Source of the DNA: a virus
Taxonomy: Duplodnaviria > Caudoviricetes
Reading direction: 5' to 3' (one strand)
IMG/VR virus record: IMGVR_UViG_3300021400_000154
Span: 46,615 to 110,614 of that record
Length of the DNA: 64,000 nt
Numbering within the stretch: the stretch's first letter is position 1; every line of letters begins with the position of its first letter. The position numbers were made by a program, and so were the translations under genes. Below are positions 1,498 to 36,950 of the stretch, piece after piece. The notes beneath the pieces were generated by a model, which was not told the origin of the DNA, searched no databases, and saw nothing but the letters and a program-made list of their open reading frames with translations.

Positions 1498-2034
1498 ATG
1501 CCAGTTATGAACAAAGATCTCCCGGAAGCGAAGGAGAATAATAAAAAGCTTCCTACGAAACGTGCTCTGAAGAAGGACATCCCTGACGAGGCTGAACTGG
1601 ACAAAGAAATACCGGAAGCCTCGGAGCTCGACAAAGAAATGCCGGAAGCTTCTCCGCTTGATAAGCCTCAGCCTCCGCTTGTAGACCCGGAGAACATTAT
1701 CCGGGTTGGCGACCAGGACATTGAAATCAAGCCGACGAAGCTGTTGTACCAGCGGAACAAGACCGCTGCAGCTTACCGGATTCTTGATGTGTACCCTCTG
1801 CCTGACATCCTTGCGATGGATAAAGGCATCCTCGACCCGGAACGTGATGGCGATGCGATCGTATTTGACTTCCTGACCGCCGTGTTCGACGACGGCAAGT
1901 TGGTGGCCAAGTATTACGACACGATGGACTCTGAAACCATTTATCGTGCGGTTCAGATCTTCAAGCGGCTGAACCATATAGACGATAAGGAAGAGGCCTC
2001 AAAAAACCGGGCAGCCAAGGGGACGAGCAAATAA
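1498..2034 (+). CDS. Tail assembly chaperone (lambda gpG-like)
   Basis: Located between tail tube and tape measure genes. Has a slippery site near its 3' end and ~10-aa N-terminal repeats. Confidence 0.7.
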   Translation: MPVMNKDLPEAKENNKKLPTKRALKKDIPDEAELDKEIPEASELDKEMPEASPLDKPQPPLVDPENIIRVGDQDIEIKPTKLLYQRNKTAAAYRILDVYPLPDILAMDKGILDPERDGDAIVFDFLTAVFDDGKLVAKYYDTMDSETIYRAVQIFKRLNHIDDKEEASKNRAAKGTSK

Positions 2035-2345
2035 GCCTTGACGAGGCTGTAGCGCTGGTTGCTGTCTACCTTGGCGAAGCTGATGAATCGAAAATAAACG
2101 GAATGTCGATTCCGTTCTTCAATAATGTATTGGCGGCATTAGGCAAGCGCGTTAACTACGATGCCGTCGTGAACTATGCCGGTAACTCTTTCGCGAAGGA
2201 TTCATGGAAACTGATTCAAGAGGCGAACCCGTTGGTAAAGCCGAGGAAGATCAGTTCCGGTTTTATGGATCTGTTGAACAAGGCTGCGCCGAAGTCTGAT
2301 GCTAAGACACAGCAGATGCTGAAAGAGATTGACTGGGCGAAATAA
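1498..2345 (+). CDS. Tail assembly chaperone, -1 frameshift extension (gpGT-like)
   Basis: A AAA AAC heptamer at 2001-2007. The -1 frame is open from there through track ORF 2103-2345. Confidence 0.7.
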
Positions 2346-2357
2346 GAGGTGATTCAT

Positions 2358-2585
2358 ATGAACCGTGCTTGTTTCTATTATGAGGCAATGATGCGCTCCT
2401 ATGATAAGTTTGTGAATGGCGAGTGCAGCCAGGAGTCTTTTATCCTGGCTGCCAAAGCCTTTGCTGCTTTACGGGAGCCTAACCCATTCAAACAGTGCGA
2501 GGACGAAAAGTTGTTCTCTCAGAATGCAGCGATCCGTCCTTAGGCTGATGCCAAACTTGTTACTGCCGTGAAGGAGGAGTATTGA
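2358..2585 (+). CDS. Hypothetical protein (TAG at 2541-2543 read through)
   Basis: GAGGTG RBS. Readthrough ends at a TGA that overlaps the next ATG (TGATG coupling). Confidence 0.6.
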
Positions 2586-2980
2586 TGAGTTATTTTGACG
2601 TGTTAAATAAAGCTTACGAGCTTGTGGTTGTTACTGATGAACTTACTGGTATTTCTTATCTACAGCCTTCGTACAAGATGCTGCTTCGTGATAATGAAGT
2701 GCATCTGCCAGATTATGATTCAATCGTGAACAATAATGATCCAGAACTTTGGGAGGCTGTGAAGCTTGAGGTTGAGAAGCGCAACGCCATGCTGAACTTC
2801 GTGAACCCTGTGGCTGAGTGGGTGTATTCTGCGATTGCTAACACGGTTGAGCCTGCGATGACGCAGGAGGAGAATGAGCTGCTAAAGAACGTGATGGAGT
2901 ATCTGCAAGCGAAGAACGGGAAGAAGACGAGGACGAGGAAGAAGAAAGGCGCTCAAAGCGAGAGTACTCTGTCGCAGTGA
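2585..2980 (+). CDS. Hypothetical protein
   Basis: AAGGAGGAG RBS; translationally coupled ORF. Confidence 0.65.
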   Translation: MSYFDVLNKAYELVVVTDELTGISYLQPSYKMLLRDNEVHLPDYDSIVNNNDPELWEAVKLEVEKRNAMLNFVNPVAEWVYSAIANTVEPAMTQEENELLKNVMEYLQAKNGKKTRTRKKKGAQSESTLSQ

Positions 2981-3013
2981 TTTTTTGTCGTAAGGCCAAT
3001 ACTGATAACGGCT

Positions 3014-3841
3014 TTAATGCAAATACATGTAAAACAATATATCTGGGCCGAACGCATATTTATCTATGGCTATGTTTTGCGAAGGAACGAATACTTTTTT
3101 TACTGGACTTTTGTAGAAACAAAATTTAGCAATCGATGTTATGCTCGGTGGCAAGATTACAGTATGTAAATTTTCAAAACCGCAAAACGCCTCCTCTTCG
3201 ATTGTAAGGATTCCATTTCCAATGATCAAACAGGACAATTGTTCTGCATGCCCGTTTGGATACCAGGAAGGAACTTTATCGTCTATCAGCTCATAAAAAT
3301 TAAAAGATCTTCTCCCTATCGTTGTAATGTCCGTGCCGTTAATCGTACTAGGGACACAGAGAATCTCTTCGCCTGATAAATCTCCGTAGGTCAACTTATT
3401 TCCTGTTACTTTCCAAAACGTAGTTATTGTGTTTCCGTTCAGCAACGTACCGTTTGCTTTATAAGCGAAATGTAAAAGCAAATCAGAATATGACATAGAA
3501 ATCCTTTTAGCGTCATATATTAGCCTATCTGACAACTTGAAGTATAAGCGTATTCTATGAATGCCATTTACACAATTATGAGATATTAAATGCGCAGTTT
3601 GCTCAGTTCGCCCATTGGAAAAACGAGACGCTGCATCTGCAGAAATGGTATGAAAAGCATTCATATCTATATCCCTTTGTTTGGTGATCATGTATTCACC
3701 AAACAACATATGCTGATATTGGTTGTTGCTTTTACTCGTCGAAACAGTATATTGTAATAAAGCTATTTGTTTGTATTCGGCATCGCTTATTTCGACTTCT
3801 GCAACAACACATCCGTCAATCATGAAACAGTTAATCTTCAT
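3014..3841 (-). CDS. Moron-like gene with C-terminal BspA-type leucine-rich repeats
   Basis: TTIGRRSF, LTIEEEAFCGFENLHTVILPPSITSIAKFCF and IAIDKYAF repeats. AT-rich, antisense to the tail operon, with its own promoter. Confidence 0.65.
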   Translation of the reverse strand: MKINCFMIDGCVVAEVEISDAEYKQIALLQYTVSTSKSNNQYQHMLFGEYMITKQRDIDMNAFHTISADAASRFSNGRTEQTAHLISHNCVNGIHRIRLYFKLSDRLIYDAKRISMSYSDLLLHFAYKANGTLLNGNTITTFWKVTGNKLTYGDLSGEEILCVPSTINGTDITTIGRRSFNFYELIDDKVPSWYPNGHAEQLSCLIIGNGILTIEEEAFCGFENLHTVILPPSITSIAKFCFYKSPVKKVFVPSQNIAIDKYAFGPDILFYMYLH

Positions 3842-3915: not shown

Positions 3916-6900
3916 ATGCCGAATGATCAAGTAGTACTTGATGTCGTTTTTCAGCCTCAAGTAGAAAGCCTGATTCAATAGTTGCATCAGGCATCACAAA
4001 TTGCGTCAGATGACGTTCAAACAATGCTTACCGAATCAATAACTCAAGCTGGATTATTGGCGAAAGAATCTGAAGGCTTTTAGTCTCAAAGTATGCCTCA
4101 GGAATATGTTCAAATGGCACAATCTTTAATGAATGCCATGAATAAACAAGTTCAAGACATCATCGCACAGCTTAATAAGGCATCGCAAGATGCAACTTCT
4201 TCTGGGTTTGAGGATGGTATTATCCAAAGAATAAAGACTACAATAGGTTCGCTTACTGCGAACATTATAGATCAAACTTTTTCAGTTGGCGCTATGAAAA
4301 ATATTGTTGGTCAGATAGCACCTGATATGGCACAGTCTTTTGCCCAAAACTACAGAGATTACTATTTGCAAGCAAGTAGACTTATGGCAAGGCAAGCCAA
4401 AAACCCAGCAACAAACGGCGAATGGATGAAGTACCTTGATTTAGATTCTGGCTTTGCCGCTGGTCAAAGAGCTATGATGCAACATTTTGGGTTGTCAGAA
4501 GCTCAAATGAGACTGATGCAAGAATCAGTAGTGCGCAGCCAGCCAAATCAAATACGTATCGATTACGCCAGAAATGCTGTTCGATATTCAGGTGGGGCCA
4601 TGAAGAAAGTTGGCGTGATCCCACAATATATGACATATCAAGAACGGCTACCTGCTTTTTATCAGGGCTTAAGCAACCAACCACAAACAACAACGTTGTC
4701 CCCTGATGAAAGGCAGGCTTTACAAGCAGAAGTAAGTGATGAGCAATGGAAAACAATCAGAAGTATAGCCGCTAGCAACCCTTCTTTTGAAAAAGCTCTT
4801 ATTATGGCTGGATTAGCCCAAAGAACAGTCCATAACAAAGCGGCAGGTTAGTTAGTTATGCCACAAAAGCCAGTAAGTACTGAATTGGTTGCAAGAGCGA
4901 TTGGCCATTTACATAGAGATATAATGATTCCTTAGCTCGAGGGAGCGCCATCTAATTACAGAAAAATCACATAGACATCTGGTGAGGATCAGATGGCAAT
5001 GGCAAATGCAGATTAGAAAACAGTGTTAGATATTATCGATGCGTTTCATAAACTTGCTCCATTGGGTATTTCTCCCGTATATGGTGATGCTGTTACACGC
5101 CCATATAATCCACAGACTGGCGTTTCGCGTGTACGAGGTGCGAAATCTACTGCAGCTCCAGAAAGATATCAGATTATGAGTTTAACATGGGATGATTTCC
5201 AAAAAGGAGTTATGCTTGATCCACATGGCCCTGTTCAAAGCGAATATGAAGAAGGCGCAAGGGGCACATCGACAAACAAGATGATTCTTGAATCGGGTTT
5301 CACAAGAATGCTCGGCATGCATGGTAACAACACGTTCGGTAATGGAAGCAAAACAGATAATAGTTCGCCTTCTATAATACAAATTGACTTGTAGGATCGA
5401 TTATTAAAGAAACGTAAAGACGGAGAGTTAGAATGGGAAAATGGACACGTTGTTCAAGATGAAGATACTGCGAAGCTAATCGAGCGTATATTTACTATTC
5501 CGCAAGGCCATTCTCACCCGAGAGTTCAGTTTGGCCAAACTGGTATTCATTATGTTCCTACTAATGTGAAGAATGGCGTGATTACTCTTGGACGGGAAGA
5601 TGCTGTTGAAAGTGCAATCAGCGATTCTATAAGACTGACAGGGCATAATGTGCTCGCTAATATGGTTGACCCGAATACTGTGTTCTAGACATATACTGAT
5701 TTGAATAAACAAATCGAGGCATACAACAGAGACTTAACTCCGTCTGTGCCTATTGAAAGAATGGGCGGAAAGCTTCCTGATAAAAATAGAATCGCATTTG
5801 TTGATCTGTCTTCGTTTACAGGGAAAAAAGATAGTAAGACTGGCCGTAATGACTATCACGATGGTTCATCCTTTTTTATGCCTGGCTTTATTCCAGGTGG
5901 CAATGCAACATACAGAATCGCCGGACAAAAGGGCACAGCTCAAACAGTTGATTTCCGTGCAATGATTAGAGATTTATACGGCGATGTTGATCATTTTTAT
6001 TTGCCTGCATTGAATGCTCCGAAAGAATACAAAGATGCATTTAACCAGCATGGTATTGAAAAAGTTAGAGAAATGATGCAACAACGAGGAGAGTTGTAGA
6101 AATTCGAAGAATATTTCCTTGATGCGTTACAGTTTGATGCGCTTATATAGGACTCAGTCATTAAATCGCCTGCGTACAAAGGCTTGACGAACGCACAGGC
6201 GCAAGATCTTTTTTATAAAACAAAAGAAACCCCTATGGGTATGGGCATTGTACAAACAGCAAGCCAGTTTTTGACAAAAGGGAAACTTTCTCTTGGCAGA
6301 CAGTTATCTCAGCATTTAGACTTAACACCAGAGCAGATAGCAGAAAACAGAGAGTTGTGGGAGAACTATATAAATATGCTCAGATATAGGCCAGAAGAGA
6401 CTGCAAAGAGGTTGTTTTCAAATCCTAACAATTCTTTGGATTCTAAGATAATGGCTAACCCTGGATTAATGTGGGATGACCCAGAAGCAAGGTAGATTGT
6501 GCTAAACGAAATATCTAAAGCTATGATTTCTATGGCGAACGGAGAATTGTTTTAGGATGGATTATCGCCTTCTGCTCTGGCCGCAGCGAACCCAGCAAAG
6601 ATATTAATGGATGCAGCCAGCAGAAATGGCCTTAAGATACAGAATCCATTACTTGCGCGAAGGCTTACACTTGGAACTGGTAAACTTGCTGCAGGATTCT
6701 TGGATGATGACGAGATAGCAGTTGGAAGATGGCCAATGACACCTGGAGAACAATATAGTGCCCAACTATAGAAAGATTACTTGGAGGCTGGAAGAAAGTA
6801 CGGGCTCGCAGATGACGTTTTTTATACTGATGCCGGATTTATCGGAGCAATGGGAGGCGGAGATGTCGACGGCGACACGATCCAGGCATTAAGAGGAAGA

Positions 6901-9900
6901 CTTCGTGATTATGTAAAAAACACAATAACTGCAAGAGCTGGTAAAACCGGGCAACGTGATGCGTCTTTAATACCAGAACCTTTGCCAGCAAATCAAAAAA
7001 TAGGGCCAAGAGTTTTTGCAGATCAAATGTTCAGAGCTGCTCAGCAGCAGATCGAATTAGGAATGGTCTCTAGAGCTCAAGACGCTTTATCCCAACTTCC
7101 TTGGATTGACCCAGAAATAGTTAGACAATATGGGCAAGCGAATGCAGACTTAGCCATGCAATATGACGTAGATTCGACTTTTTTGAAGACAGGCGTATTG
7201 GCGAACTGGACTCAGGCCTCAAAAAATGCAAGGTATTTAGGCAGACCTTTCAGTCATGTATATAAAGACCTTGTTGGAGCTATCCAAGAAGGAGATTATT
7301 CGAAAATAAGAAAAATGTAGGAGTTGAACTTTCCAAGTCGGTATCATGCTTTGACGGCTTAGATGATGGAAAGTTTATACCAGAATCCAATAAGTAACAC
7401 AGCTATTGACAAAATGATTGCTGCTCAAGAAGATTTAGAAGGAATACCTCAGCTTGAACAAGGAGAGCTATATCAACGAAGTCAAGCCGCGTTCTTAAGA
7501 GAAAACATACGAGTGATGTAGCAATTACTCTCTTCAAGAGCTGGTTTTGTTTCAACCGAAGATTTTGAAAACCTTGGAGCAAAAGCAAAAAAGTGGCAAG
7601 CTGACGTCCAAACAGAGCTTGCTCGACCTGGCATAGACGAAAAAAGAAAGAAAGTTCTTTTGGAGAATTTGGGACTTGCACAACAGCAACAATACCGTTT
7701 AGATCGCTTAAGACAGTTCGGTGTTATTGAAGGAGCTACAGACGGTTATGTTAGCTTGTTTAAAAACACTAGAGGCACTTCTGGATAGTCTGTTTTTAGT
7801 GTTGCGCAACAGCAAGCCACGGATGCAGAAGCAGCTGAGGTTGCGGCAAGAGTTGGCGCCAATCCAACAATGATAGCAGCGATGAGAACTGCTGCGGAGA
7901 ATGCGCAAATCGCTGACGCTAAACGAAAAGCCGAGAGCGCGAGATATAGTTTCTCTCAGTTGGCTCTGTTGGATAAAAGCCCTGAAGAATGGTTTAATCG
8001 GTACATAGCTAAATCAAGCGAAACAGAAATGACGCCAGCAATACATATTGGCAACGTTGTTGATAAACTTACGACAGAATGGGGTTACAGGAGACTAGCT
8101 GAACAAAAAGGGCAAGGAAAAATGCTTACTCCTGATGAGTTTGAAAAAATGTTTGTTGCCTTGTTTACAGGAAACTTTGATCCATCTTCTTTTATAAGCG
8201 GTTTTGACGAGCGCGAACGCAATAAGTTTACAGATGCGGCGAAAAGGCTTGGTTTTCAAAATGGAATGGAACATCCATCTGACAGATATAGAAATGCTTT
8301 AGCATATGTTAGAGCGATGCCTTTCATGTTGCCAGATGAGGAAATATTGGAATGGGATGATAATGGAGAGAAAAAACCATCTGTTCAAGTACGCGTTCGC
8401 CCTGATTTCGGAACAACTCCTTCGGGAAGCAGGGTAAATAGTATTGGTTTTGTAGACTTGATCACGAGAAATAAACATACAGGTCAGATTACAGAATGGG
8501 ACACAAAAGCAAATAGCGACCAAGAAGGACGTACTGGAGGCATCAATCAAGTATATTCTTATAGTACAGATCCTGCCTTCCAGCCTTCTCATATTGGAAT
8601 CTTAGCGTACAATGATCCTGAACACACGGTAACACAGCTTCCTTTTTCTAAAGAAAGACAAGATGAAGTCCGAGCTATGACTAGGGATATTCTTGCTCAA
8701 CGTTTTTTAATCGCTGAGCATGGAGACAGTTGGGATTTTATTCGGAATCAGTTCTATCCAGGAATGAACGAAGCAGCAGAACGCACGCAAACTGAAGCCG
8801 AACATCAACAAAGTAGATCTTTTATGGAACAAGGAACTGGAATGGCAATGGCCAAAGCAATGACGTTGCAAAATGATATCACAGAATATGAACAACGCAT
8901 GCAACAAATAACACAACAACTACAAAATGGATTAAGGCGTAGAAGCGGGGATCAAACAGATAATCCTTGGGAGTCTTTTGATGCGCAGTTGAATGCTTCA
9001 TTTGATGCAAGAAGACGACAGTTGGTAAAAAGGGGAGCCAACAAAGAAGATTTGGTAGGTTTAGACGAAGAGAGAAGAAAAGCTGCGGAAATGTTCGACA
9101 AAGCTTTAATGGAAGCGGCCGGTGGAGAAAAATCCGATATCGTTCAAACAATAAACGCGCTAAATGATTAGTTCGCTAAGCGACGGTCTGATTCCGGTTT
9201 GACAACTTACATTCAGGAATTTGAGGGCATTGAAAAGGCAGTTAAATAGGCTACTATGGCGTTTGACGTGTTTGAACAAAAGATGGCAAAAAAGAAGAAC
9301 TTGTCGCAGAAAGATCAAGAAGCTCTCGACCGTGGAAGACAGCAAAGAGAAGAGCTTACTGGTTTGGCAGACATACAAAGGCGCGCTATATAGGAAGAGG
9401 CAAAACGGAAAGCATTGTCGCAAATAGAAGATTTTGCAATAGATCAAGGTACCATGGAAATGACTCCAGAAATAAGAATGCAGCGTATCAAACAAAAAAG
9501 GGCAGAAGAACTGATGCGTACTCAGTTAGCCATAGGAGAGTTAAAAGATAAAGGCCTTTTATCGGAAAAAGATTTCGAATCAATGTCTAGCAGTATTACT
9601 GATATGCTTGGCGATCAATAGCTGGGTGCTTTTGCTGCGCGCGCTGAACGAATCCGACTTGGATTAGAAACAAAAACGCCTGAACAAATGAGTCAGGAGC
9701 GTTTGAGAGATATTCGAGCAGCGATTGCAGCATAGGTTGAATCTGGAGGAGACAGTCCTGAAGTTGCCGCAGCAAGAGAAAGAAAACGTGCAGCTGATAA
9801 AGCTTTGGAACAAGCACAACAACAAGCTGCGGAAGCGCAACAGGCAGCGGGTGGTAAAACAGTTACAGCTGAAGATGTAGCGGCGGCAAATGCTACAGTA

Positions 9901-12900
9901 GTATCAGCAAAGTCCAGACTTAAACAGTTGCAATAGGAAAGAGATCGAATAAGTACAGATATACAAACCCGCACATCTGCTCTTACAGGAACTCAGGCTG
10001 AACAAAAAGCTCGTCGAGATGCTCTTCAGTAGGCATATGGCGAAGCGAAATCAGCCTATGAGCAAGTTGTAGCTGCCCGCCCTGCAGACGGAAGTAAGGC
10101 TCTCGAGGAGAAAAAGGCAGCTTTGCAGGCAGATTTAGAAAAGCGAAAGAAGATTGGTACTCCGGAGCAAGCGGAAGAAGCTTTAGCGCGAGAAAAAGCA
10201 GAATTAGAGAGACTTACTGCAGCAAGCGGAACTGCATAGCAATCTCTGAAACAAGCCCGCGCAAGCCAAACAATAATGGATCAAAGAAAGGAACAGCAGG
10301 ATATTATTACAGCTGCGACAAAGGATTTAGAAAAACTCAAGCCAGATCAGGAAAGAATAACAGAGGCACACACTAAAGCTAAGGCAGCCAGAGCTGCTGA
10401 AAAAATACATAAATTACAACCCCAACTTGGTGGGAAAACCCCGGAAGAAATCTTGCAAGAAGAAGAAGACGCCAAAAAGGAACTTGAACAGGCTCAGAAA
10501 GAAAAACAAAGAGCAGAGCATGATGCAACTGCTTATTGGGGTAGCCGAAAGAGGAAGGGTTTGAGTCAACAAGGCGACTTTAAGGCAATACGTGGAGAGC
10601 TTTTAGATCACCTTAGTAAACTCAGTCCCACAGAGCTGAAAGACCTTGGGTTTATATAGCTTGCACCTGATAAAATGGACGAGGATGCATTGGCCTCTAC
10701 CCTCAAATACAACGCTGGTGCTTTTTCTAGATCTCGCGACACATCCCTTTCAGGACTTGCAGCTTAGTTTGTTGAAGCCTGGAAAGCGGAGAAAGATTTC
10801 CGACCGATTTCAGGAAGAGTAGAGGAAGCACAAGGGAGAGCCGCAACAGCTCAAGCAGCAGTAAAAGGACTTGAACAAAAGGCCGAAGCAGCAAGGAAAA
10901 TACAAGATCTTTTGCGTGATACTCCTGGAGCTAAAGAAATGCTGTCAAAAACAGACGAAGAACTCGCCGGCTTTAAAGAAGCGGAAGATGCTCAGAGCGT
11001 ATCCGAGAAATAGCAAGCAGCACAACAAAAGATAAGCGCAGCTTTGCAAGAGTTAGCTAAACTTCCTGAACCTAAAGAAGTTGATGTCAAAGGGAAACAA
11101 CAAGAAGCTGCCGAAGCGGCTGGAGCAGTGGATGCTCAAAAATTGAAGGTTGAAGCAGCAGAACAAAGATTAAAAGACGCTAGAGAACTGGACACACGAA
11201 TCAGAAGTTTTCCCACTCTGACAGAGCTAGAGGAACAAATCGAAGCCGAAGGGCAAAAGCAGACCGATGCTGCCGAAGCAGAACGCAAAGCAAAAGAAAG
11301 AATGGATCAAGCACAAGAAGCGTTAACTGCAGCTACGCCACAAGACACTACAACAGCTCAATCAGAGATCGCAAGCTTGAAACAACAGCAAGCCCAAAAC
11401 CAAACGCAGATAGAAGCTCAACAGGCAGTAGTAGCACAGGCGGAAGCAAACCTTGCGGCAACAAATGCTGCTGCTCAAAACCCTGATGAACGGATAGCCA
11501 ATGCGAATGCAGCTGTTGAGAATGCGCAAAATGAAGCAAACCAAGCAGCCCAGGATCTGGAAGACGCAATAAAGAAACAGGATTCCACTGCGAATCAAAG
11601 TATTGACGAGCAAATGAAACCCCATGTTGAAAGAGAAAACCAAAAGCTTGAAAGAATCCGTCGGAAAAGCGAGCGCGCCAGAGAAGATTTCAGGCGTATG
11701 CTTACCGGCGAAACATTGACTCCAGAGGAAAGAGCTGCCAGGTCTGAAGAAGACATTAAATTCGCGCTTCAGGAAGCAAGAGACAAAATGTATGAAGATG
11801 GCAATCAAGATTGGCAAAAGCTTGATGAGATCCTTGGCAATGATAGTATGTGGGCATAGTTCAGGCAGCGTACTTAGCAACAGGAAAAGACCATGGACCA
11901 GCTTGCTCAGAACGATCTCGAGCGTACTGCTCAAGACCTGCAGAACAGAATAACCGGACACATGGAAACGAAGGAAGAAATGGAGAACAGAGCGATCCAG
12001 ACGTTCAGGGATCAAATCATTCAGAAGCGTGATGCAGCGAAGAAGAAAGGATTGGATACTTAGGCTTATGACAGGATGCTTGAGAAGGATGAGAATGGAC
12101 AAGAACAGCTCAGAGGCGATTTACAGGGTGCCATCAAGGAGCAAACGGATTTACAGAGACAACAACAGATCGCTCAGCGGAGAATGCAGAATCTCGGTAT
12201 TCTCAGGCGCGTATCTGGTTTCACAAGCACGACAGATGCCGCTGCTCAATATGAAGCTCAGAAGCAACAGGACCGTATTGCTTTTAAGAATGCAAGAGAC
12301 AAAGCTGAAAATACAGCGGAAGCAGAACGCACAGAGCAAGATCGTGCTCTCCTGGCGATGACCGAAAAGGATTGGGAACGGCAATACGACGAGCAGAATC
12401 TTGGAATGCAAGGGCTTGGTACAAGGGACGCTGCGAGAAAAAAAGCACAAGACGATTACCGCAATAATAAGGGTTATATTCAAGAAATCCAAAACAGCGC
12501 CTTGTAGGATACAGAAAAGGCAGCAAGACTTGCAAGATTTTCCAGGTATCTGGGACAAGACAGACAGCTTATTTCCGAGGAAGATTATGTCAATCAGGAA
12601 CTGTAGTTATTTGATGAAAGAGCTGATATAGCAAGAAGAAATGCTTTGCAAGGTATAGATCAAGCGGCTGATGCTTCTATGCAATACAGGTTAGGAAAGC
12701 TTTCTAGTGGGCGGCGTGCGTTAACTAGCTTTGGTATGACGTCGCAAATGGAGCTTTCAAGGCGTTTATCAGCTTTCAATCAATCTGCTGCCGCGCGCAG
12801 GAGTAGCGTCTCTTTATCTTCAAAAATCAAAGAAACAGAGACAGAGCTCGCCTCGCTCACAGATGCAGACAAAGAAAAAAGAGCTACTCTTGAAGCCAGG

Positions 12901-15900
12901 CTACAAGCTTTGCGCGATCAACAATCATTAGCTGATACGCAGTCTGAAGAAGCAGAGCAGAGAGCTCTCGGAAAAAACAAAAAGTATCAAGCCGCAAGAG
13001 GAAAATACGATCTCGCAAGACAAGCTTACGATGCCGCGTTGAAAAACAATGATTCTGATTAGATGGCAAACGCAGCACAAGGTATGCGCGACGCCGAATA
13101 GGAAATGCAAAGAATCGCGGCAACATCTATAAGCGCGCGAGCTTCCCTCTCTGCTCTTGGGCAAACGTTTGCTAGGGTTGGCATGCAGTTCGGAAGGCGC
13201 ATATTCCAGGCAGCCATTCGTGAAGCGACTCAGTTTGTCAAAGTATATGATCAAACCATGCATCAGATTCAAGCCATAACCATGAAATCCAACCAGGAGA
13301 TGGCTACAGTCAGATCTTCTACGATAACTCAAGCTATAGGTTTAAAAACCTCTGCGACAAACGTTGCACAGGTCAAATCAGAGTTATATCGGCAAGGGTT
13401 ATCTGATTCGCAAGTTAATGACAGAACTGATTCGATTATAAAGTTTTCTGCTGTCACAGGGATGAAGGCAACGCAAGCAACAAAAGCTCTCACTACGGCG
13501 TTGCAAAGCGGACTTGTTAATAATATTCATGAGGCAATGGACGCGATGGTCGCTCTGGGCGATAGCGCAGCAACGACAGCTGAAGAAATAGCAAAAGGTA
13601 TGCAAAAATCTGCTGCGGCTGCAAAAGTTGCAGGCGTGTCTTACGGTGAACTGACATCCATGTTAACAGTTATCACCAGCAAAACTCAGCTTGGCGGCAA
13701 TCAAGCAGGCACAGCGCTTCAAACGATATTCAGCCGGATGCGCAGAGTAACAAACGAAGGTATAACCAGTGATGAAGGCGGAGAAATCACAAGCGTCAAT
13801 GATGTCGAAGAATCTCTTCAACGTGTTGGCATTTCTATGAGAACAGACGCTAACAGTTTCAGAGATACGTTGGATATCCTTCGCGATCTTGCAAAAGTTT
13901 GGAATGATTTGAATGACATACAGAAGAACAATATCATGTATAATATGGCTGGCGCAAGACAGAGCAATATGTTCTCTGCTTTAATGGAAGGATTGGCTGA
14001 TGATAATGGTAAGACATTTGATAAATATCTTGGGCTTACTGAGGATAGTGATGGGATAACTCAGAGCAAATACGAAATCGTAATATCAAACATCAATGCA
14101 GAACTCGACGAACTGAAAACCACATTCGACGGGCTTGTAGAAGCAGTCACAAACAATGGATTGTTAACGTTCTTCATCGACCTCGCAACAACCATTACTG
14201 GTTTTGTCGCAGGAGTTTCCGATGGATTAGGAGCTATCCCTTAGCTTCTCTGGGCTATTGCTGCTGTGTTAGACGTGGTGAAGATTAAAAGCGCTGCAGT
14301 GGCCGTATTCAAAGGATTGGCGAATCCTGCTACGTTAATAGGGCCGATTTTAGGCCTTCTGGCTGTTGCAGGAGTAGGCGCTTTGGGATCACACATAAGT
14401 GGATCAAGAAAAGCAACAGAACAAAATACTGAACTGAAACGACAAGCCGATTCTGACTTTCTAGAACATGCATCCAGTGTTCGTACGGATAGCATAGAAA
14501 AAGTGGAAAAAGCACTTGACAAAGTAAAGCAAATGCAAAAGATAGATGTCGATATGGAAACAGAAGAAGCCCAAAAAGCGCTGGAAGATCTCAAAAGAAG
14601 CACAAAGGCGATAGGTGGCAATATCTCTGATTGGCCAAATGCCGTAAGAGAGGCTACAAAAGCTATAAATGAAGCGAGAAAAGAAAGTGCACTATTTTTA
14701 CTCGGACTTGGGGATACTGGGGCAAAGGATCTCCAGACAAAATATAATAATAATGTTTAGACATATAATGGTGCCATCTAGTAGTCTGATTTTGAAGACG
14801 GCGGTATATTATATGGCAGATCAATTTTCCAGGGTATATCTCAAAAGGACTTAAAACCTTACTCAACACAAGACGGTAAAGGCGGCTATACTTACGAAAG
14901 CTTGATAAATGATCATTAGAAACTTGACATGAAAGCGCCTCGTAAATCTATGACTTATAGAGATGCGATGAAACAAGATTTAGAAAACATTGGTATAAAG
15001 ACAGAGGGGCTGTAGGACACAGACTTGATCGATTTGCACGGTGTATACTATTACAGTGGCCTTTCCCAAAACTTTAGGCGCGTTAAATACAACAAGAATG
15101 CAGGCAATCAAAATCGTGATAACCAGGAATATGCTTACGAATTTTTTAAACAGCTTTCTGACAACACAAATCAGCAAAATATAACCACTTCATCATTGAA
15201 ACGTGTAGAATCATGGTTTGATCTGTGGACTAAAACAGCAGGATATGAAAACTTTATGAATGCTCATGGTGGACATATAGGTTCATATACAGCAGGTGGT
15301 TCCTTTGAAGACTTTGCATCTGTTATGGCAAAACAACAATACGAAGGAGTTAGAAATGAAGTTATTGGGTTATGGGATTAGGACGAAACAAGAAACGAAA
15401 TCGCAACAAGAGCTGCTGAAGAAAATGAAATTCTGTCTAATATGGACAGCTTGTTCGTTCAGTCGCTTATGACTAACGATGATGCATATGGGCCAGCTGT
15501 AAAACTTTGGACTTAGGGTAACGAAAAGTTTAAGGATCGCATTGTTTCCGAATTTCTTGATTACGCAAAGGACCAAGGTATTACGCCGAATTATACAAAT
15601 GTTAAAGAGTGGCTAATGAAACAAATTGAAACTTATACTTCTGATGAATTCCTGCGGATGTATGGGTCTCCCGAAGACTTTGAGTATTATTATTCAGATT
15701 CAGAAGGCAATCCATTGTTTGGTGCGCATGATTTATAGCGAGAAGCAATCCTTGAGGCGTACAACGAAGAAGTTGCGCTTGCCGAGAAAAACGGTAACAC
15801 CAAACGGGTTGAGGTACTTAAAGCGCTGCAAGAAGAAGTAAGTAAGTATAATCCTTTGAAGACAAACAAAATATATACGTCATCAGGGGCGCAAGTTGGC

Positions 15901-18900
15901 GGTACTATTGGAAGTATTTTCGGAAGCACGAATCTTTCTTCTAAAGACTTGGGATACAGAACTGAATACGCACAACTGCTTGCGATGGCTAACGGAGTAA
16001 CAGACTATGACGCATTTAAAAATACAGAAGGATACACGACATTGACGGCTCTCGCGCAAAACGATACTGCTCTGACGACTTTAATGCAAGATGCTAATAC
16101 CGGACGAGCTGGCCTTGCTGATATTATTGACTATCTTGAGAAAAAAGTCTATGGCGAAAACTATATACAAACAACAGCGTCTTCAGGTAGGGCCATATCT
16201 GAAAATAGACTTGATATTGCAGCGCTTAAAGATGAAACTAGTCCTTTGCCTGCTTCTGTTGCCAAGCGCGTCGCAAGCGCGATTAATCAAAACGAATCGT
16301 ATGTTTATCAAAATAGACAGGCCGCTGCAGCTATGCTTGAGTAGACTACCGATCAAAACCAACGTGGTCTTGAGACAAAAGCTCGTGGATGGATAAGCGA
16401 TCTATATCGGTTTGCGTAGAGAGAAGATATGCTTAAGGACTTAAGAAAGAACTATTAGAAAATGTCTGACGAAGAAATAGCAACGATGTATGGGAGCTGG
16501 GGCATTACAAACAGATCGATGGCTGCGGCTGTTTCCAATAACAGTAAAGTCCTTAGTTCTGATTAGGAAGCAATGAATTATATCCAAGCTCTTGCTGCCC
16601 AGCTTCCTGGATTTGAATATGATAAGCAAACTGGCGGAATCAAGTTTACAGGTATGGATGTAAAAGGTTATGAAGATGTTTTGTCTTTTGCTCCCGTTAT
16701 AACAAATCATGATGTAAGAGACCTTGCTGAGACAATGTTGAATGGTGCGGAAGGGAAAACGTGGAACGATTTTGTTAATAAAGCCAATCAAGATATAGCA
16801 AGACAGTTAATGCAGCAAAATCCTGAACTGTTCACGTATATGACGATGACTGATGCTCAACGAAGAACAGAGGAAGGACAAGCCGCATATTATACTGCAA
16901 GACAGCAACTTCTTACGTCTGAACTCCAAACGCTTGAAAAAATCGGGCAAATCCTTCCAGAGGCCACTCAAGTTGCACAACAACTTTCGAGCGGATCTTA
17001 TGGAGATCAGATTGCAGGCATTAGTGGTTTTGGGTCTATGGTGCAAAGCTATGGTTAGATAGTTGCTCTTAGGCAGAAAATATCTTAGATGACAAACTTA
17101 AGCGATGAAGAATGGAAATAGCAAGGCGGAGAAGCCTACGTCAACAAGCTAGCCACGATGTTAGGATTGGATCCTTAGCTTTTTGACAAGAGTAATGTTG
17201 ACGAACTGCTTGAGCAGGGCAAAAAGAAAGCAGACAAAATATCTAACGGTTTGCAACAAATTATTGAATCTGTATTCGACATAGATTTATCCAACTACGA
17301 CAATCTGGAAGGCGTTATCGCTAAGCTCGAAGAAAGCGGAGACGCGTTATCAAGCTTTTTTGCCATACTATTAAGATCCCTTTCTGATGTATATGGGTTA
17401 AAGATAAATGATCAGCACGAGCTCGATGTGGAAGGCAACGGCATTTAGGGAGCTCAAATATTCCAAAGTGCAGACGAAGAAGAGTCTTATTCGGATAAAG
17501 TCATAGGGAGAGACGCGTTAGCCGCGTTCTCAAGCCAAGCAAGAATAGCTTCGACTTCTGAAACACCTCAAACTATTGGCGATGTAGTTGGTTGGCTTGT
17601 GCAGCAAGGGATTATCTCTGAGACAAATCAGATGAAAAATATGCCTGGTTTTGCTGGACTATTAAACAAATACGGCGCAAACAAGGTTATTACTCCTGAT
17701 ATTGCGGACGAAATAGAGACGCTTACTCCATGGTCTTAGATGCTGGTTAACACGGAGTATGGCCGAAACGCTGATTTGTTTAGCACAGCATTGAACGAAG
17801 ATGGTACAATAAATCAAGATAGATTAAAGGCAATCTATAAGTCAGATGTCGATGGTTCATTTACTTCTTGGGCAGGCGACTTAACGTACTTACAAGATGC
17901 CATAAATGGTGTCGATGGCGCGATGGAAAAACTCAACAATGAAATCTATTACAAAGGTTTACGCGCCACACATGCATTTGGAGAAAATACAGAAGAGATT
18001 GTTGATGGTATGGCAGACATGAATAAAGGTTTAATCCAGGCTACAAACAGATTCACCAAGTTCAATGAGACAACGACAAAAGCTCTAAACAACAAATATT
18101 ACATCAATATGTGGAAAAAGGGAAACAGAGATTCGAAAGTTGTAGATTACATTTCTTAGCTAACGAAGATGGATAAAGAAATGGTCAGCTCCCGAAAGTA
18201 TGACGCTCAAATTAATACATTGTTGGAATCTATTGAGCTTGGTGATATTAGCGCTATTGAAACAGAAGGCACTACTCTTATGGGAAGTTTAGGAGAACAG
18301 CTTCAAGGGATGCTTGACAAAGAAACGATGACTCTGCATCTGAATAATGTCGATGTGGATCTTTCAGAGGGATAGTACAATGTAGATTTTAAAGATGTGA
18401 ATACTAGGCTTGCAGGCATAATCAAAGATCAGCAAATGGCAATGATCAATACGCTGATGCAAGCTGGCGTCAAAGGCCACCTGGAAGTGTCTGGCAGCGG
18501 CGACAACATCGTTGTTCAAATGGTAATAGACGATATGGGCGAAGGTGTTAAACACACTGGTGGCGGTGGCGGTGGAGGTAAGTCAGCCGCTCAAAAACTG
18601 ATTGATCGACTCAAACATAAAGACTCTGAGGCTGATCATCGCCTTAAAATGTTGCAATATGAGGAGACAAGATACGAGAATGCTGGAGAGATCACCAACG
18701 TCAACGCGTTAATAGGCCAGGAAAACACGCTTCGCGAAGAACTCAATAAAAAATATGAGGAAAACATTGAAAAGTTAAAAGAGCAGATGGCGAAGACAAA
18801 GAAAAACACAGACGACTGGTACAGCCTGCGGGATGCCATCATGTCCTACGAGGAAAAGATCAAAGAATCGAATAACGCAATAGAAGAGAACAACCGGAAG

Positions 18901-20355
18901 ATTGAGGAGAATCTGCAGAAGATTCGTAAGCTGCGCACTGCACTTGAGCAAACGGTCGAGCAGGAAATCCAGAACAGAATCAAGCGTGAACGAGATATGC
19001 TTTCCGGGACAGTTGATATGCAGAATACGGTTCTTGACGCGATCAAGCACCGGTATGAGGAAGAGTGGAAACTCGTCCAAAGGGATATTGACAAGAAGAA
19101 GTCTGCGCTTGAAGAAGAGAAGAACCTGATTGAGGAGCGGCTCAACAAGCGCAAGGAAGCAGAAGATGAAGCCCAGAAGTACGAGGAGCTTGCGGAACTT
19201 CGCAGACAGTATGCGCTGATCTCCATGGACTCCACCAGAACAAAAGATGCAACAGAGATGCGCAAGAAGATCACGGACATGGAGAAGGAGCTCGCCTATA
19301 AGTCAGCGGAAGACGAAGTGAAAGCGCGGCAGAATGCGCTTGACGAACAGATTAACGCTTACGACAAGTATACTGAGAACGGCGAAGAGGATCTTCAGAT
19401 GCTGCTCGACAATGCGAATAACTTTGGCGACGAGCTCAACAAAGTTATTGGCATGAAGGACGAGGAGCTGTACAACTGGCTGATGGAAAACGTGACCGAG
19501 TACGCCAACAGCGTCAAGGAAGCGCAGAAGCAGATCATGCTTGGCTGGGAAGACACGTATAACCAGATGATTGGTTATACGCCAACCTACTGGGATGGCT
19601 GGACTGATCTGGAAGGCAACGAGCATGCTGGTGTTTACGACATTCTGTAGAGCAGAGAATCGTATCTGGAGTTCATGAAGGAAAGCCAGGATTACCTCAA
19701 CGCGTCCGAGACTGATAAGGCAGCCATGGAGTACGAACGTGGCACTGCTTACGACGAGTGGATTAACTCGCTCAAGACAGGTGCTTTCTGGGAACACTTT
19801 GATAAATGGATGGAGACGCTTGGCTTAAGTTCAGTGACTTCTGGAAACAGCGGAGGAAAAAACAAACCTGATTTGAATGACCAGTTAAAACAGTTAGGAG
19901 AAACAGCAGCCAAACTTACAGGTAGAACTGTCGCTGATCTGCTCGAGATTGAACGTAGATTCGGGTTGTATGCAGGGCAACAGTTTAACGCTGGGACAAC
20001 CAATGCAAACGGTATTCCTGGAAACGCTTCCGGTGGCCTTGTCGACTACACAGGTCTTGCCTGGGTTGATGGATCGATAACGAAGCCTGAGGCGTTCCTG
20101 TCTGCTGCGGACACCGAGCTGATGCGCAACATGCTGGATGCTGCATCCTACCTTGCGTATCGTCCGACGATCAGCAATATCGACAGCAATGCTTTCGGCA
20201 AAGGCGGGATTAATATCGGAGACGTGAACATTACCATCACAGAAGCGAGTTTCAAGGAAGATGCAGACTATGAGCGGGTGGCCGAACGGGTTGGCGCGGC
20301 ATTCGTCAAAGAGCTTGGCAAGCAAGGATTCAACACAGCCAACTATGCATTCTGA
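3916..20355 (+). CDS. Giant multidomain tape measure protein (~5,479 aa with TAG read through): RNA polymerase-like domain + PD-(D/E)XK nuclease + coiled coil + TP901-type tape-measure core
   Basis: AGGAGG RBS precedes ATG 3916. All ~20 major track ORFs from 4093 to 19675 share frame 1. The gaps I translated are interrupted only by TAG (about 55 by hand count). The gene ends in TGA followed by a terminator. Tape-measure core at 13105-14244 (ELYRQGLS...TTAEEIAKGMQKSAAAAKVAGVSYGELTSML...GNQAGTALQTIFSR). Confidence 0.88.
5700..7320 (+). other. Two-barrel (DPBB) RNA polymerase-like domain within the giant protein
   Basis: Ordered motifs: HDG (5857-5865), RIAGQKG..VDF (5914-5955), DALI*DSVIK, LGRQLSQHL, NPGLMWDDP, GRWP (6724-6735), GGGDVDGD (6853-6876), LGMVS and VDSTFLKTG (to 7194). 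Confidence 0.75.
7945..8700 (+). other. PD-(D/E)XK (RecB/Cas4-like) nuclease domain within the giant protein
   Basis: YSFSQL..LDKSP..WFNRYI...TPAIHIGNVV, GFVDLI (8446-8463), EWDTK (8494-8508) and QVYSY (8548-8562). Same motif order as the free-standing nuclease at 61937-62704. Confidence 0.7.
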
Positions 20356-20356
20356 C

Positions 20357-20394
20357 AGGCGAAAGAGGGGGAGTTCGCCTCCCCCTCTCGCCTT
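20357..20394 (+). terminator. Stem-loop after the tape measure gene
   Basis: AGGCGAAAGAGGGGGAG-TTCGC-CTCCCCCTCTCGCCTT; the T-tract is weak. Confidence 0.6.
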
Positions 20395-20415: not shown

Positions 20416-21606
20416 ATGACTGGCGGATTTACTTTTAACGGTACAGACATTTCCATCCTCGGTCTGGAATACGTCCCAGACAATCAAAACACATACGTCT
20501 TCAGGCCATCGCAATGGAATATGAATGAGGAGACTTTCGATGCGCACGATGGCGGATATTATTACGGAACAACCGTGAAACCGAAGGACTTTTCGCTCAG
20601 GTGTATTTATGAGAGCAGACATGTGAACGACGGAATCTTGACGAGAATCTTTAATACTTTTAAGAGAGGAACAACCGGCAGACTTGTGTTCAGAAAGCGT
20701 CCATGGTGCTGGTATGTTGCGACTGTTGTTTCCGTTGATAGTTCACAGATGACCAACTACATGAACGGCCTGATCACGATTAACATGAGAGCTTACTATC
20801 CTTTCGCGAGAACGGATAAGACATACATTACAGACGACGATGCTGCAGCAGAGCTCTATCCTGGCGGGCCAACGCTGGAGGAAGACCTGTTGGCGAATAC
20901 AGCCATGCTGAAAGGGATTGAGTGGGACCTGTCCAAGAACTTTGCTGAGACGCCGATTACATCGCAGCAAACATTCCATCTCTATAACCCTGGCACAGAG
21001 ACGGCTCCTGTTGCCATTGAGATCGCAGGCGATACGGGAACGGGCATTGTGATCACAAACTCAACCACCGGTCAGAGATGCGACATCGCGCCTTTCGACT
21101 CTACGTCTGGTGAACATGCCGGGAAATACCTGATCGTCGACAGCTTAAGCGGCAAGGTGCTGCTGACAGATGGCTCAACGTCCACAACATATGGTTTCCT
21201 GTACCACGACAATGGCTATATCGATTTTGCTTCCGGGTATCCCGTTATCAGAAATGTTCATGTGACAGGACAATCTGGCCAGAGTCAGCTGACCTTAAGC
21301 GAACCGATTGGAGGCAAAGAGTTGATCGGACATCAGCTCAGCATGTTTGTGTCAGGCCAATCCTGTCTGCTTGGCATTGCCGTTGTGGGGATTGCCAAGC
21401 TAAGCGTTCAAGGCACAGGAAGTATATTCAATGCAGGCATCACAAACGTTTCTGATGATGGGCTGACACTGTCATTGGACAAATCTCTTGCGTCCGATGT
21501 TGGGACCGATGCTTAGCTTGTGAAATACAATGAGATCACAATCACGCCCAACACAACCATGAATCTTACGAAGCTGATCTTCCGGTATCGGCCAACATTT
21601 ACTTAA
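20416..21606 (+). CDS. Distal tail protein (Dit-like); TAG at 21514-21516 read through
   Basis: N-terminus GGFTFNG...LGL, DGGYYYG and YNPGTETAP motifs. Readthrough gives a ...FRYRPTFT-TAA end abutting the next GGAGGTG RBS. Confidence 0.75.
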
Positions 21607-21618: not shown

Positions 21619-24600
21619 ATGCTTCGTTACAAAAGGAACCTGATTCTTGACGTGTACGATTACAGCGGCAATAAGCAATGCACGTTGTATGACAGCACAT
21701 CAGATTTATCCGGCCAGGCTACAGACGTTGTCGTAACGATTGAGCGAAACGGCTGGAAGGAGCTGTCGTTCACCATCCCCACAACATGCGAAAGCGAGAA
21801 CGGCGGGCAGGAAGAAAACTTCCGACTGCAATACCTGATCGCTGACTATCGGATTCGCCTGAAGGATGATGATGGGATCGACTGGTTCCTGATCTCAGAA
21901 CCAAAGATAACACATAATGTTTATTCGAAGAACGTGTCTGTGTCAGCAGGGCACATTTCTCAACTGCTGAAGACGAAGAATCTTGGTCTGGAGTTCTCCG
22001 ACCATGAGGGCAATAATGTAGGAACAGCGGAAGATCTTCTGACAAAAATCCTCGATGGTACTGGATGGTCTGTCGGAAGTGTAGCCGACTTCAAAGAGAA
22101 GCGTTCCGGCGCAACCAAGATCCGCTCTATGAAAGCTTCTGCGAAGACAGGTGCTTTTAAGCTGATCTCCAACATGTGCGACCTGTTCGAGGCGAAGCCT
22201 GTTTACCATGGAGATTAGAAGACGGTAGACATTATTCCGATGAACCCGTTCTCAGAACCGGAGGATGGATCGCTGCCTGCTGTGGCGACAGGTGAATGTA
22301 TTGAGCTGCACTACGGGAAAAACGTGAAGAACGTTACGAGAACGCTGAACACAGAAAACCTCGTGACGAAGCTGTATGTCTATGGCGCTTATGGTGATGC
22401 AGTGAACGGATACTGCGGTATTGACGAGTGGCATCACAAAGAATACGTGTTGACTCCTCCAGGAGCAATCCCTGCAGGTACGCAATGCACATTCTCCGTG
22501 ACGGACGATGTCTCGGGGATCACGTATACGAGATACTTTGTGGCGAAGAACGCGATCTCTGCGTCTGCAAGGCTGATATGGTAGATGTTGGATCCTGCTT
22601 CCATGAGCTATGTATGGGATGAGGAGAACAATGCTGCCTATAGTGTGTCTGATAAGACAGATACCCATTACAACCTGATCATCAACACAGCAAATCCAAG
22701 CACAACTGCAGCAAAAAGGCCGCGCTTGATTCATCAATCCAGCAATACGGAATCTCGTGCAGGAAGCACTGCCGCAACAGCAGAGCATGGCATGAAGGTA
22801 ACTCTTAACTCACAAATCAAATATCAGTATATTTATTTCGGGCAGAGCACTAATGGGAAAGGAACCATGCAAGGACTGGAGCCTGGGCAAACATATACCA
22901 TGTCTTTCGATGCCACGTGGAAACTTGAAAGTGGGCGGGCAACGCCTGCAACAGATAACTTTGTTGTGTTTATTAACATAGACAGAGGAACAAATACATA
23001 CTCAACACTTACAAGAAAGACGATCAAAACCTTTACAACAGGAGAAGAAACATAGGACAGATGTGAATCCTTTACTTTTACTATTCCAAACGATTGCGTC
23101 AGGTGTTATATAGGAATACGTGCAGACAGTTCGACAGCCGCCAATTATGCGAAGGGTGACTTCATCGAAATCCGAAACGTCAAACTCGAAGCAGGTTCAG
23201 TTGCAACACCTTGGTGCCCATCGGAATCTGAATAGACGCTGACTGTCACGGAAACAAATGTTGTTGACAACAAGGTATCCTATCTGATGGACTTCGATTA
23301 TTACCGCAGCGTCGGGCTGTTGACGGATGAGATGCTTGACGAGGTAGGTGCTTTCCAACGCGAGATTCCTGCCCTTTTGGATACTGCGCAGACGAACGCT
23401 GCAGCGTACGCCTCCACTATCAACGATCTGTCCGAGACGATTGGAACGCCTGATTTCTGCAAGCTCTCCGCGCAGTATGATACAAGCGGAGAATACCTTG
23501 GGTTAAACTTGAACACAGGAACAGGCGGTTATCCGAAAGGTGTTATCTACAGAACGGACTATGCGCTGAAGGAATCGAAACAGTTCCAGTGGAGAACCAC
23601 GAGTAATATATACCCGAACGGAGACCCGTATGAAAACTATGCAGCGGTGGTTTACATCGTTCACACACATACGGATCCTTGCACATACGACATCGGATAT
23701 CTTCGTGCGGTTAACGATCATTTGGAACCAACAGAAGATGATCAGAAAGCACCGACAAAGCTGTCCTTGTGGCTCAAGAGTGCAAACTTCGATGATTCTC
23801 ACTCAAACACAGATCACATCTATCTGTTCAGGCAAAACAGCATCATCGGCGACCTTGGCGCGATGATGCTACAGGACGAGACGGCGGAAGATACGCTTAA
23901 AGACAGCGTAAAGAACCAAATCAAGGGTGATCGCCTCGTGTATTATACGGATCAGGCGATCACAAGAGAAAATCCTGGATTTAACTTCGTTGGATATGCC
24001 TGGGCGTGGAGGTATTACAAAGATAACTCGCAGCCATCTGAAATGTACTTCTGCGATCTTGATGCCGGAGACGTAAGCTGGCACAGGACTTTCGTTACAA
24101 AGAATCCTCCAGCGAACACATTGGGTTCTAACCAGGATTACGCCTATTGCTGGAAAGAAGGAACATTATACCGGAAGAATGGCAGCGCCTGGGAAAAACA
24201 AACAAATAAGTCTACCGTCGACGACAACTTCGGCAGGATGGTTTCCAGTTTCGGCACCGTGTACAACAGCTGCGTTGATCGCGACATGATCAGAAACGGA
24301 CACTATGAGTATTATGCAGTGGATGCCCAGGAAAACCTGCCGGTTGGCAACTACGCTATCGCAGACCCGTTTGGAGTCTACCATGCGTTTACAACGAAGG
24401 CACAAACCGATCAAGGAAAACGGATATCTTTCGACTGGACGCACGGTTGGGTGGCGATATTTAACAGCGGTACAGACCCGTAGAGTGTCGACATCACGAC
24501 TGTGATTGATGACGCTCTGACCAGTTCCCAGTACCGGTATGATTCTGTATTCGACAGCGGCGAGGATGTGCTAAACGATGCGATCTGGGAAAGCGGCTCG

Positions 24601-36879: not shown

Positions 36880-36903
36880 AGCAGTCCTCCTTTTAAAAAA
36901 TAA

Positions 36904-36948
36904 GGGCTGCCATACTGGTATTATACCAGACATGACAGCCTATGTAAA
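36904..36948 (-). promoter_or_regulatory. Integrase promoter embedded in a terminator hairpin
   Basis: TTTACA (36943-48)-17 nt-TATAAT (36920-25) with an extended TG. The same bases form a hairpin followed by a T-tract on the - strand. Confidence 0.65.
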
Positions 36949-36950
36949 GG

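Follow-up and report, generated by a model that had tools for sequence, protein, structure and literature searches.

Can a long-tailed phage carry an RNA polymerase (RNAP) into its host on the protein that measures its tail? This question is raised by a 64,000-nucleotide stretch of a phage genome (hereafter the window; positions 46,615 to 110,614 of IMG/VR record IMGVR_UViG_3300021400_000154), in which one frame runs from 3916 to 20355 on the + strand and is broken only by amber (TAG) codons. A preliminary description had read this frame as a tape measure polyprotein with an RNAP and a nuclease. To figure out what the locus encodes, we analysed the frame, its homologs, its predicted structure and the phage around it. 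Our results showed that it is a single gene. It probably belongs to the late (virion) genes of a temperate SPbeta-like siphophage whose complete genome measures 110.6 kb, and its product would be a 609-kDa tape measure protein (TMP) that carries an enzyme module and is ejected on infection for host-independent early transcription.

The reading frame and its amber codons

The frame contains 5,479 codons, 57 of them TAG and none TAA or TGA, as the preliminary description had it. It begins with an ATG at 3916, which lies 7 nt downstream of a consensus Shine-Dalgarno sequence (AAAGGAGG), and it ends with a TGA at 20353-20355. The remaining two forward frames contain 201 and 363 TAA and TGA codons across the same interval, so the open frame did not arise by chance. 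When the frame is read with the standard code (table 11), it breaks into 23 pieces of at least 80 aa, much as had been expected from standard gene calling (about 20 pieces). Neither an in-frame TAA or TGA nor a gene boundary was found within 7320-13105, and the homologs called under the standard code are uninterrupted there. These results confirmed that 3916-20355 is one gene. Its product has an isoelectric point of 5.1 and no cysteine in 5,479 residues.

An exhaustive HMMER search with aa 451-1640 as the query found 54 proteins. Eighteen of these are full-length (3,899-5,923 aa). They were predicted with the standard code, and from the N-terminus onward they run colinear with the query. Segment-wise searches showed the same order of domains in the homologs: an N-terminal module, the polymerase, a linker, the nuclease, the PF10145 core of the TMP, a poly-Gly and coiled-coil part, and a C-terminal domain. 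Only the spacers vary. Every one of the 18 full-length homologs retains the fusion of polymerase and TMP, and the 54 matches include no split form. Further homologs were retrieved from IMG/VR by a degenerate DNA pattern for MGGGDxDGD. All eight loci found in this way are true homologs, with an identity of 30-51% across 950 aa. Three of them are recoded at TAG, as the window is; the other five are open under the standard code, one of these having a single TAG close to the beginning of its open stretch. Two of the IMG/VR records (L008 and L010; 107,106 bp and 20,168 bp) agree exactly in their tblastn scores and, where they overlap, in their TAG pattern, and they are probably one phage that was deposited twice or came from two samples.

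A peptide-word search of IMG/VR gave no matches, and tblastn of the RNAP region against 50,697 GenBank phages gave none either. The homologs that we looked up were found only in metagenome assemblies of ENA and Logan. Because of this and the lack of a GenBank phage match, the published survey of NCBI viruses probably missed this family of TMP-fused RNAPs. The MGGGDxDGD pattern was also searched in 185,579 species genomes. Its 36 matches contained no homolog by tblastn, so they were attributed to chance and gave no lead to a host.

Which amino acid is inserted at TAG was indicated by two adjoining tRNA genes and by the homologs. The amber suppressor tRNA (anticodon CUA; 44403-44489, - strand) is a duplicate of the neighbouring tRNA-Ser(UGA) (44491-44577, - strand), with which it shares 62 of 87 columns without gaps. 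It has a long variable arm and a G discriminator base. The same tandem pair was detected in a recoded relative (G005, 107 kb; L054:1410-1586), and a check of three standard-code relatives gave no match to it. The N-terminal 1,800 aa contain 19 TAG sites. Homologs that use the standard code place serine there in 94 of 302 aligned cells (background 7.4%), while glutamine (13 of 302 cells) stays at its background level. At the conserved sites 367, 493, 952, 1135 and 1149, serine is present in 10-15 of the 18 homologs, and three C-terminal TAG sites likewise correspond to serine. Glutamine was therefore rejected in favour of serine. These comparisons indicate that TAG is serine, not the glutamine usual in phages; the phage-recoding literature that we examined does not mention serine or tRNA-Ser. 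Translation of these genomes with code 15 (TAG as glutamine) would thus place a wrong residue at 57 positions of the TMP alone.

TAG makes up 57 of the 386 serine codons of the gene. It is concentrated in the virion genes of the + strand, whereas the replication genes and yonO have none, a distribution in line with the gating of late genes that has been proposed for recoded phages. With 57 TAG codons, the gene should be translatable only after the suppressor tRNA has been expressed, which suits a late virion protein.

Polymerase, nuclease and tape measure domains

Polymerase motifs had been reported at residues ~650-1090. All of those listed are present, and most are conserved across the 18 full-length homologs: D649-G650, R667..G.K672-G673..VDF, S..K, LS.Q, NP, R938-W-P940, MGGG-D983-V-D985-G-D987, VS and YD.DSTF.KTG. 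At an overall identity of 30-50%, three blocks are invariant or nearly so, namely DG...MPG...R667..G.K672-G, R938-x-P940 and MGGG-D983-x-D985-G-D987-T. The first (D649-G ... MPG ... R667..G.K672-G673..VDF, window 5860-5958) is nearly invariant in 26 sequences and looks like the basic loop of the beta subunit, in the first of the two double-psi beta-barrels (DPBB-B). The third contains the predicted metal-binding D983-V-D985-G-D987 of DPBB-A (window 6862-6876). The motif D[VFI]DGD occurs exactly once per sequence in the 18 homologs (at residues 970-1062) and in the eight loci. Such invariance in divergent sequences argues for a working active site.

The structure of aa 451-1400 was predicted by AlphaFold2 from 26 sequences, with a mean predicted local distance difference test score (pLDDT) of 83.3 and a predicted template modelling score of 0.76. 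Foldseek against the PDB gave 25 matches at E <= 1e-3, all of them single-chain two-barrel RNAPs, including QDE-1 (8.5e-10), RDR2 (3e-9) and gp64/gp62 of the P23-45 group (5e-4). The next matches were P23-45 gp96 (1.1e-3) and gp66 of phi14:2 (a crAss-like phage; 0.044), with noise below. Model residues 1-709 (aa 451-1159) were then compared by VIA-align, which gave Z 17.8 for RDR2 (493 aligned residues, root-mean-square deviation 3.6), 16.6 for QDE-1 (518 residues), 14.8 for gp64 (408 of 593 residues) and 11.1 for gp96 (378 residues). Beta-prime/Rpb1 chains and isolated DPBB domains reached only Z 8-9, on model residues 425-650, the part that holds the DVDGD; the DPBB-B strands lie at model residues 201-248. 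The match therefore covers both barrels and the fold of the solved single-chain RNAPs, well above the beta-prime-only level. The best structural neighbours, QDE-1 and RDR2 (PF05183; PDB 2j7n, 7roz), align over about 500 residues (Z 16.6-17.8), including both barrels and the bridge-helix region, at 9-13% identity; they are cellular enzymes that act on RNA or single-stranded DNA (ssDNA) templates, not virion proteins.

The kinship that had been suggested with YonO, QDE-1/RDR-type and crAss-like enzymes thus held in the structural comparison, with the crAss-like gp66 as the weaker match. The barrels lie in a confidently modelled region, aa 451-1160 (window 5266-7395), which we assign as a predicted single-chain two-barrel RNAP core. 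About 190 mostly helical residues, also confidently modelled, connect the two barrels. The segment before the core (window 3916-5265) is conserved as well, with E 1e-19 to 1e-61 in 17 of the 18 homologs, and the core of gp96 comes after residues 1-326.

At the sequence level the polymerase stands apart. Neither Pfam, PHROGs nor PDB sequences gave anything relevant when searched with aa 1-1700 as a single sequence, and a 13-sequence profile of the family found nothing among PDB sequences either. The Pfam family of RNA-dependent RNA polymerases (RdRP, PF05183) did not match the window protein at its gathering score and was only grazed by 5 of 13 relatives (best E 0.004). For this reason we regard the polymerase as a separate sequence family inside the structural clade of single-chain two-barrel RNAPs.

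The polymerase is followed by a nuclease-like domain at aa ~1343-1560 (window 7942-8595). A compact alignment of aa ~1330-1620 showed the ordered signature of the RecB family, YS.SQL...W(Y/F).RY, G.A.H, D.EI, G.(V/I)D1514L, D1529.K1531 and Q1545...Y1549, and the whole family conserves the predicted catalytic residues D1514, D1529-T-K1531 and Q1545...Y1549. PF12705 (PDDEXK_1) matches five of eight aligned family members (best E 3.7e-15), and the nuclease profile aligns motif for motif with the nuclease domain of AdnB. The copy in the window itself scores 18.9 bits against PF12705 (cutoff 22; E 1.6e-3). Its structure model is of moderate quality (pLDDT 63.7), and Foldseek found no match at E <= 1e-3. 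The weak matches all agree in direction: AddB (probability 0.69), ACE1/Cas4 and AdnAB by Foldseek, and by VIA-align the Dna2 nuclease domain (Z 5.2, below the safe level) and AdnA (Z 4.6).

Of the PD-(D/E)XK nuclease first proposed at residues ~1340-1550, the motifs and the family assignment through relatives stood, while the window's own copy stayed below the Pfam cutoff and without a significant structural match. Taken together, the Pfam matches in relatives and the motifs make a PDDEXK_1 nuclease of RecB/AddB type likely. The domain shares the ordered motifs S.S.L, G..H, hhhD, (D/E).K and Q...Y with RecB-family nucleases (AddB, AdnAB, Dna2 and Cas4; PF12705), but it lacks the iron-sulfur cysteines and sits in a tail protein instead of a helicase-nuclease. 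To our knowledge, no TMP has been described with a domain of this type. Behind it lies a poorly conserved segment of low confidence, with pLDDT below 50 at model residues 241-297 and 306-361.

The remainder of the protein has the features of a tape measure. Aa ~1750-3000 (window 9163-12915) form a charged, Ala/Gln-rich spacer that is predicted to be helical, with a coiled-coil-like composition (EKRQAL 58-67%, aromatics 2-3%). None of the 18 relatives has so long a spacer between nuclease and TMP core: it exceeds theirs by about 1,000 aa, and the core lies at 3100 here versus ~2000-2550 in the homologs. No DNA tandem repeats were found in the gene, and a recent repeat expansion therefore does not account for the length of the spacer. 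The core itself (aa 3143-3346, window 13342-13953) matches PF10145 (PhageMin_Tail) with E 2.7e-26 and 93 bits (cutoff 33.2) and PHROG TMP families with E down to 5e-27, and it is present in 18 of 18 homologs. About three hydrophobic, transmembrane-like segments follow at aa 3416-3496 (window 14161-14403; Kyte-Doolittle windows >= 1.6). The conserved C-terminal part (window 18463-20352) contains a Gly7 run (aa 4882-4888), a coiled coil and a C-terminal domain, and its parts were found in 17 of 18 and 16 of 18 homologs; the Gly7 run also appears in the homolog consensus. The TP901-type core and the transmembrane helices that had been noted here were thus recovered, while the ~1,500 aa of coiled coil are indicated by composition alone. 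As a rule of thumb, each TMP residue corresponds to ~0.15 nm of tail length. The predicted tail would then be ~0.57 µm long if only aa 1650-5479 measure, and ~0.82 µm if all residues count.

Proposed delivery and function of the enzyme module

An RNAP at the N-terminus of a ~5,000-aa TMP has already been shown in virions for gp96 of phage P23-45 (PMC10770324), so the novelty implied by the preliminary description was overrated. The N-terminal ~1,200 residues of gp96 (5,002 aa) are an active two-barrel RNAP with DFDGD at 779-783 (Chaban et al. 2024, PMC10770324). Virions contain this RNAP within the full-size TMP, and it transcribes pre-early genes, among them the gene of the non-virion RNAP gp64 (PMC10770324). 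Its shape is flat and clampless with a short disordered connector (67 residues), which in the authors' opinion permits passage through the tail (PMC10770324). The gp96 group comprises the Thermus phages P23-45, P74-26, G20c and TSP4 (PDB 8h2m/8h2n).

The window protein resembles gp96 in its size of about 5,000 aa, its N-terminal two-barrel RNAP with the metal-binding motif (DVDGD at 983-987 here, DFDGD at 779-783 in gp96), its transmembrane region and the presence of a separate non-virion two-barrel RNAP in the same genome. The differences are also clear. The gp96 protein has a Peptidase_M23 domain and neither PF10145 nor PDDEXK_1, whereas the window protein has the latter two and no M23. BLASTP against gp96 gave a best E of 0.026, in the transmembrane region. 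P23-45 is a lytic phage of a thermophile, whereas the phage of the window is temperate, mesophilic, SPbeta-like and TAG-recoded, from the gut. The kind of system is therefore already published. What is new here is the sequence-unrelated family, the added nuclease, and the setting in a temperate SPbeta-like gut phage with YonO and a third paralog.

These further polymerases are encoded elsewhere in the genome. An ortholog of YonO (genome 4790-7696, - strand; 968 aa, TAG-free) carries FDCDGDQLN and has 33% identity to SPbeta yonO (E 1e-107). It shows an Atlas TM of 0.82 to an RdRP cluster, and Pfam RdRP matches it exactly at the cutoff. The ortholog was found in five of five relatives tested, so that the TMP-RNAP and YonO-type RNAP mirror the pair of virion and non-virion RNAPs (gp96/gp64) in P23-45. 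The YonO match falls into two or three pieces in two relatives (G001 and G005), which points to an insertion or an intron-like interruption there. A third DxDGD protein (genome 26461-30084, - strand; 1,207 aa, two TAG) has DFDGD and HhH motifs; a weak match to a YonO query (E 2e-5) is the sole basis of its kinship. Further paralog counterparts of 829-1,090 aa were detected in three of five relatives tested. Judged from these sequences, the phage probably has three two-barrel RNAPs.

SPbeta YonO is a single-peptide DNA-dependent RNAP (PMC5467207). It belongs to the same clade as the polymerase of the window and is likewise a single-chain two-barrel enzyme with DxDGD, but it is a free ~100-kDa enzyme for late genes, and the SPbeta TMP has no polymerase. 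The crAss-like phi14:2 gp66 (PDB 6vr4) is similar in being a virion-packaged and ejected two-barrel RNAP within a giant protein, though it matched weakly (Foldseek E 0.044) and is the cargo protein of a podovirus rather than a tape measure.

By analogy with gp96, virion delivery and enzyme activity may be expected for the window protein as well. Its first ~1,600 residues would form the enzyme module, a QDE-1/YonO-class RNAP (aa ~1-1160, putative catalytic D983/D985/D987) followed by the RecB/AddB-type nuclease. The rest would be the ruler: the ~1,250-aa helical spacer, the PF10145 core, the transmembrane cluster and ~2,000 further residues ending in the conserved C-terminal domain. The CUA suppressor derived from tRNA-Ser would be made first and the TMP gene translated afterwards. 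The protein would then be assembled inside the lumen of the tail and ejected at infection, with the transmembrane part helping to form a channel through the envelope. The N-terminal polymerase, placed next to the entering DNA end, could transcribe the first phage genes without any host enzyme and would probably hand over to the YonO ortholog and the third paralog. The nuclease would be delivered in cis, with host DNA or phage DNA ends as candidate targets.

Several observations weigh against this mechanism. The assignment of the polymerase rests on a predicted structure and on motifs, since Pfam RdRP was not reached. When the family profile was compared with gp96 by hhalign, the probability was 1.3% over 19 columns around the DxDGD only; against the phage's own YonO the alignment was not significant outside one motif block, the DPBB-B block, which aligns without statistical significance with the equivalent DG..R....KG..DF of that protein. 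The connector of ~190 residues is ordered and helical in the model, in contrast to the 67 disordered residues of gp96, which would make tail passage as a folded domain less obvious than for the flat gp96. The phage has two other RNAPs and an integrase, so its need for a virion enzyme is not self-evident. In addition, no 10-mer was present in more than two of 55 intergenic regions, and hence no candidate promoter motif was found.

The enzymes may instead belong to a true polyprotein, in which RNAP and nuclease are cleaved from the ruler during tail assembly and end up as a free, perhaps packaged, enzyme or serve only as an appendage during assembly and do not reach the next host. Processing is known for some TMPs, and the segment that follows the nuclease is poorly conserved and of low confidence. 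The spacer between nuclease and TMP core varies by ~1,000 aa among relatives, as a linker would. However, Pfam and PHROG searches revealed neither a protease domain nor a conserved cleavage motif, the RNAP stays on the full-size TMP in the virions of P23-45, the sole case studied, and the homologs consistently retain the fusion. We consider cleavage unlikely, and the term polyprotein in the preliminary description is without support.

It is also conceivable, though distinctly improbable, that the polymerase is active and injected but mainly does another job, such as pulling in the genome, making primers together with the adjoining nuclease for replication or recombination, or synthesizing RNA from an RNA or ssDNA template like QDE-1. 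The templates used by its best structural neighbours, RDR2 and QDE-1, the fused end-processing nuclease of RecB type and the lack of a repeated promoter-like motif are compatible with such a role. The characterised phage members of the clade (YonO, gp64, gp96 and phi14:2 gp66), however, are DNA-dependent transcriptases (PMC5467207; PMC10770324), and the phage has a DNA polymerase gene of its own. Lastly, that both domains are catalytically dead relics, kept as structural or plug elements of the tail, would agree with a sequence very divergent from all curated RNAP families, but it is very unlikely, because the three Asp, the basic DPBB-B loop and the nuclease D/D.K/Q...Y are kept at only 30-50% overall identity, which indicates selection on catalysis. 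Delivery of an active transcriptase on the TMP thus remains our preferred reading.

The phage and the meaning of the finding

The genes around the TMP gene belong to a tail module. Upstream lies a gene of a virion structural protein (602-1378), and directly downstream are the genes of the distal tail protein Dit (20416-21606, + strand; phrog_33, E 4.7e-19) and of a Tal-like minor tail protein (21619-27027, + strand; 1,802 aa; phrog_6211; PF06605 Prophage_tail; YOMG_N just under the cutoff). The TGA of the TMP gene is followed by a G+C-rich hairpin and then by the ribosome-binding site of the next gene. The hairpin (20362-20389), right after the TGA and ahead of the Dit gene, is perfect (GAGGGGGAG-TTCG-CCTCCCCCTC) and has no T-run. 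The tail genes upstream are separated from the TMP gene by a TAG-free, moron-like gene of 275 aa on the opposite strand (3014-3841). With this gene in place, the TMP gene has 74 bp of upstream region to itself.

The whole genome is a single contig of 110,614 bp, whose first ~108 bp recur at its end. This recurrence indicates a closed phage genome, and IMG/VR lists direct terminal repeats for the record and rates it 100% complete. A tyrosine integrase (window 35908-36966, - strand; phrog_1, E 5e-65) was identified and one relative is classed as a provirus, so the lineage is temperate, an unusual setting for a virion RNAP. The lineage appears to be SPbeta-like according to its YonO ortholog, the kin of its TMP core in SPbeta-like phages and the near-cutoff match to YOMG_N; the nearest TMP cores in GenBank are those of Bacillus and Clostridium phages. 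Other genes of the - strand, both TAG-free, encode the DNA polymerase (window 57794-60994; 1,066 aa, phrog_405) and an NrdD-like anaerobic ribonucleotide reductase (window 54052-55941; phrog_25611, E 2e-104), and the latter fits an anaerobic gut host. Small shares of the phage were found in bovine and sheep gut sequencing runs, with no RNA run among those listed, and an animal gut metagenome is the probable source.

TMP-fused virion RNAPs have so far rested on one group of Thermus phages. The same architecture is now found, with a nuclease in addition, in a sequence-unrelated family of at least 26 metagenomic members, which belong to mesophilic temperate SPbeta-like phages of the animal gut. 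Tail-borne, host-independent early transcription may thus be widespread in long-tailed phages and be missed by annotation, especially under TAG recoding. The family also offers a second, independent system for studying how a folded polymerase of ~700 residues is stored and passed through the tail tube, and its nuclease suggests that TMPs can carry enzyme cargo other than cell-wall hydrolases.

Tentatively, and with somewhat less than even confidence, we propose that the TMPs of gut SPbeta-like phages are multi-enzyme vehicles that arose independently of those of Thermus phages, by the grafting of a YonO-clade paralog and a RecB-type nuclease onto a PF10145 ruler, with a relay of three polymerases, from the injected RNAP to YonO and then to the third paralog, and amber-to-serine gating of the synthesis of the virion enzyme. 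If this is true, TMP-fused polymerases would be recurrent and convergent rather than an oddity of thermophiles, and tape measure proteins would be a general route of enzyme injection.

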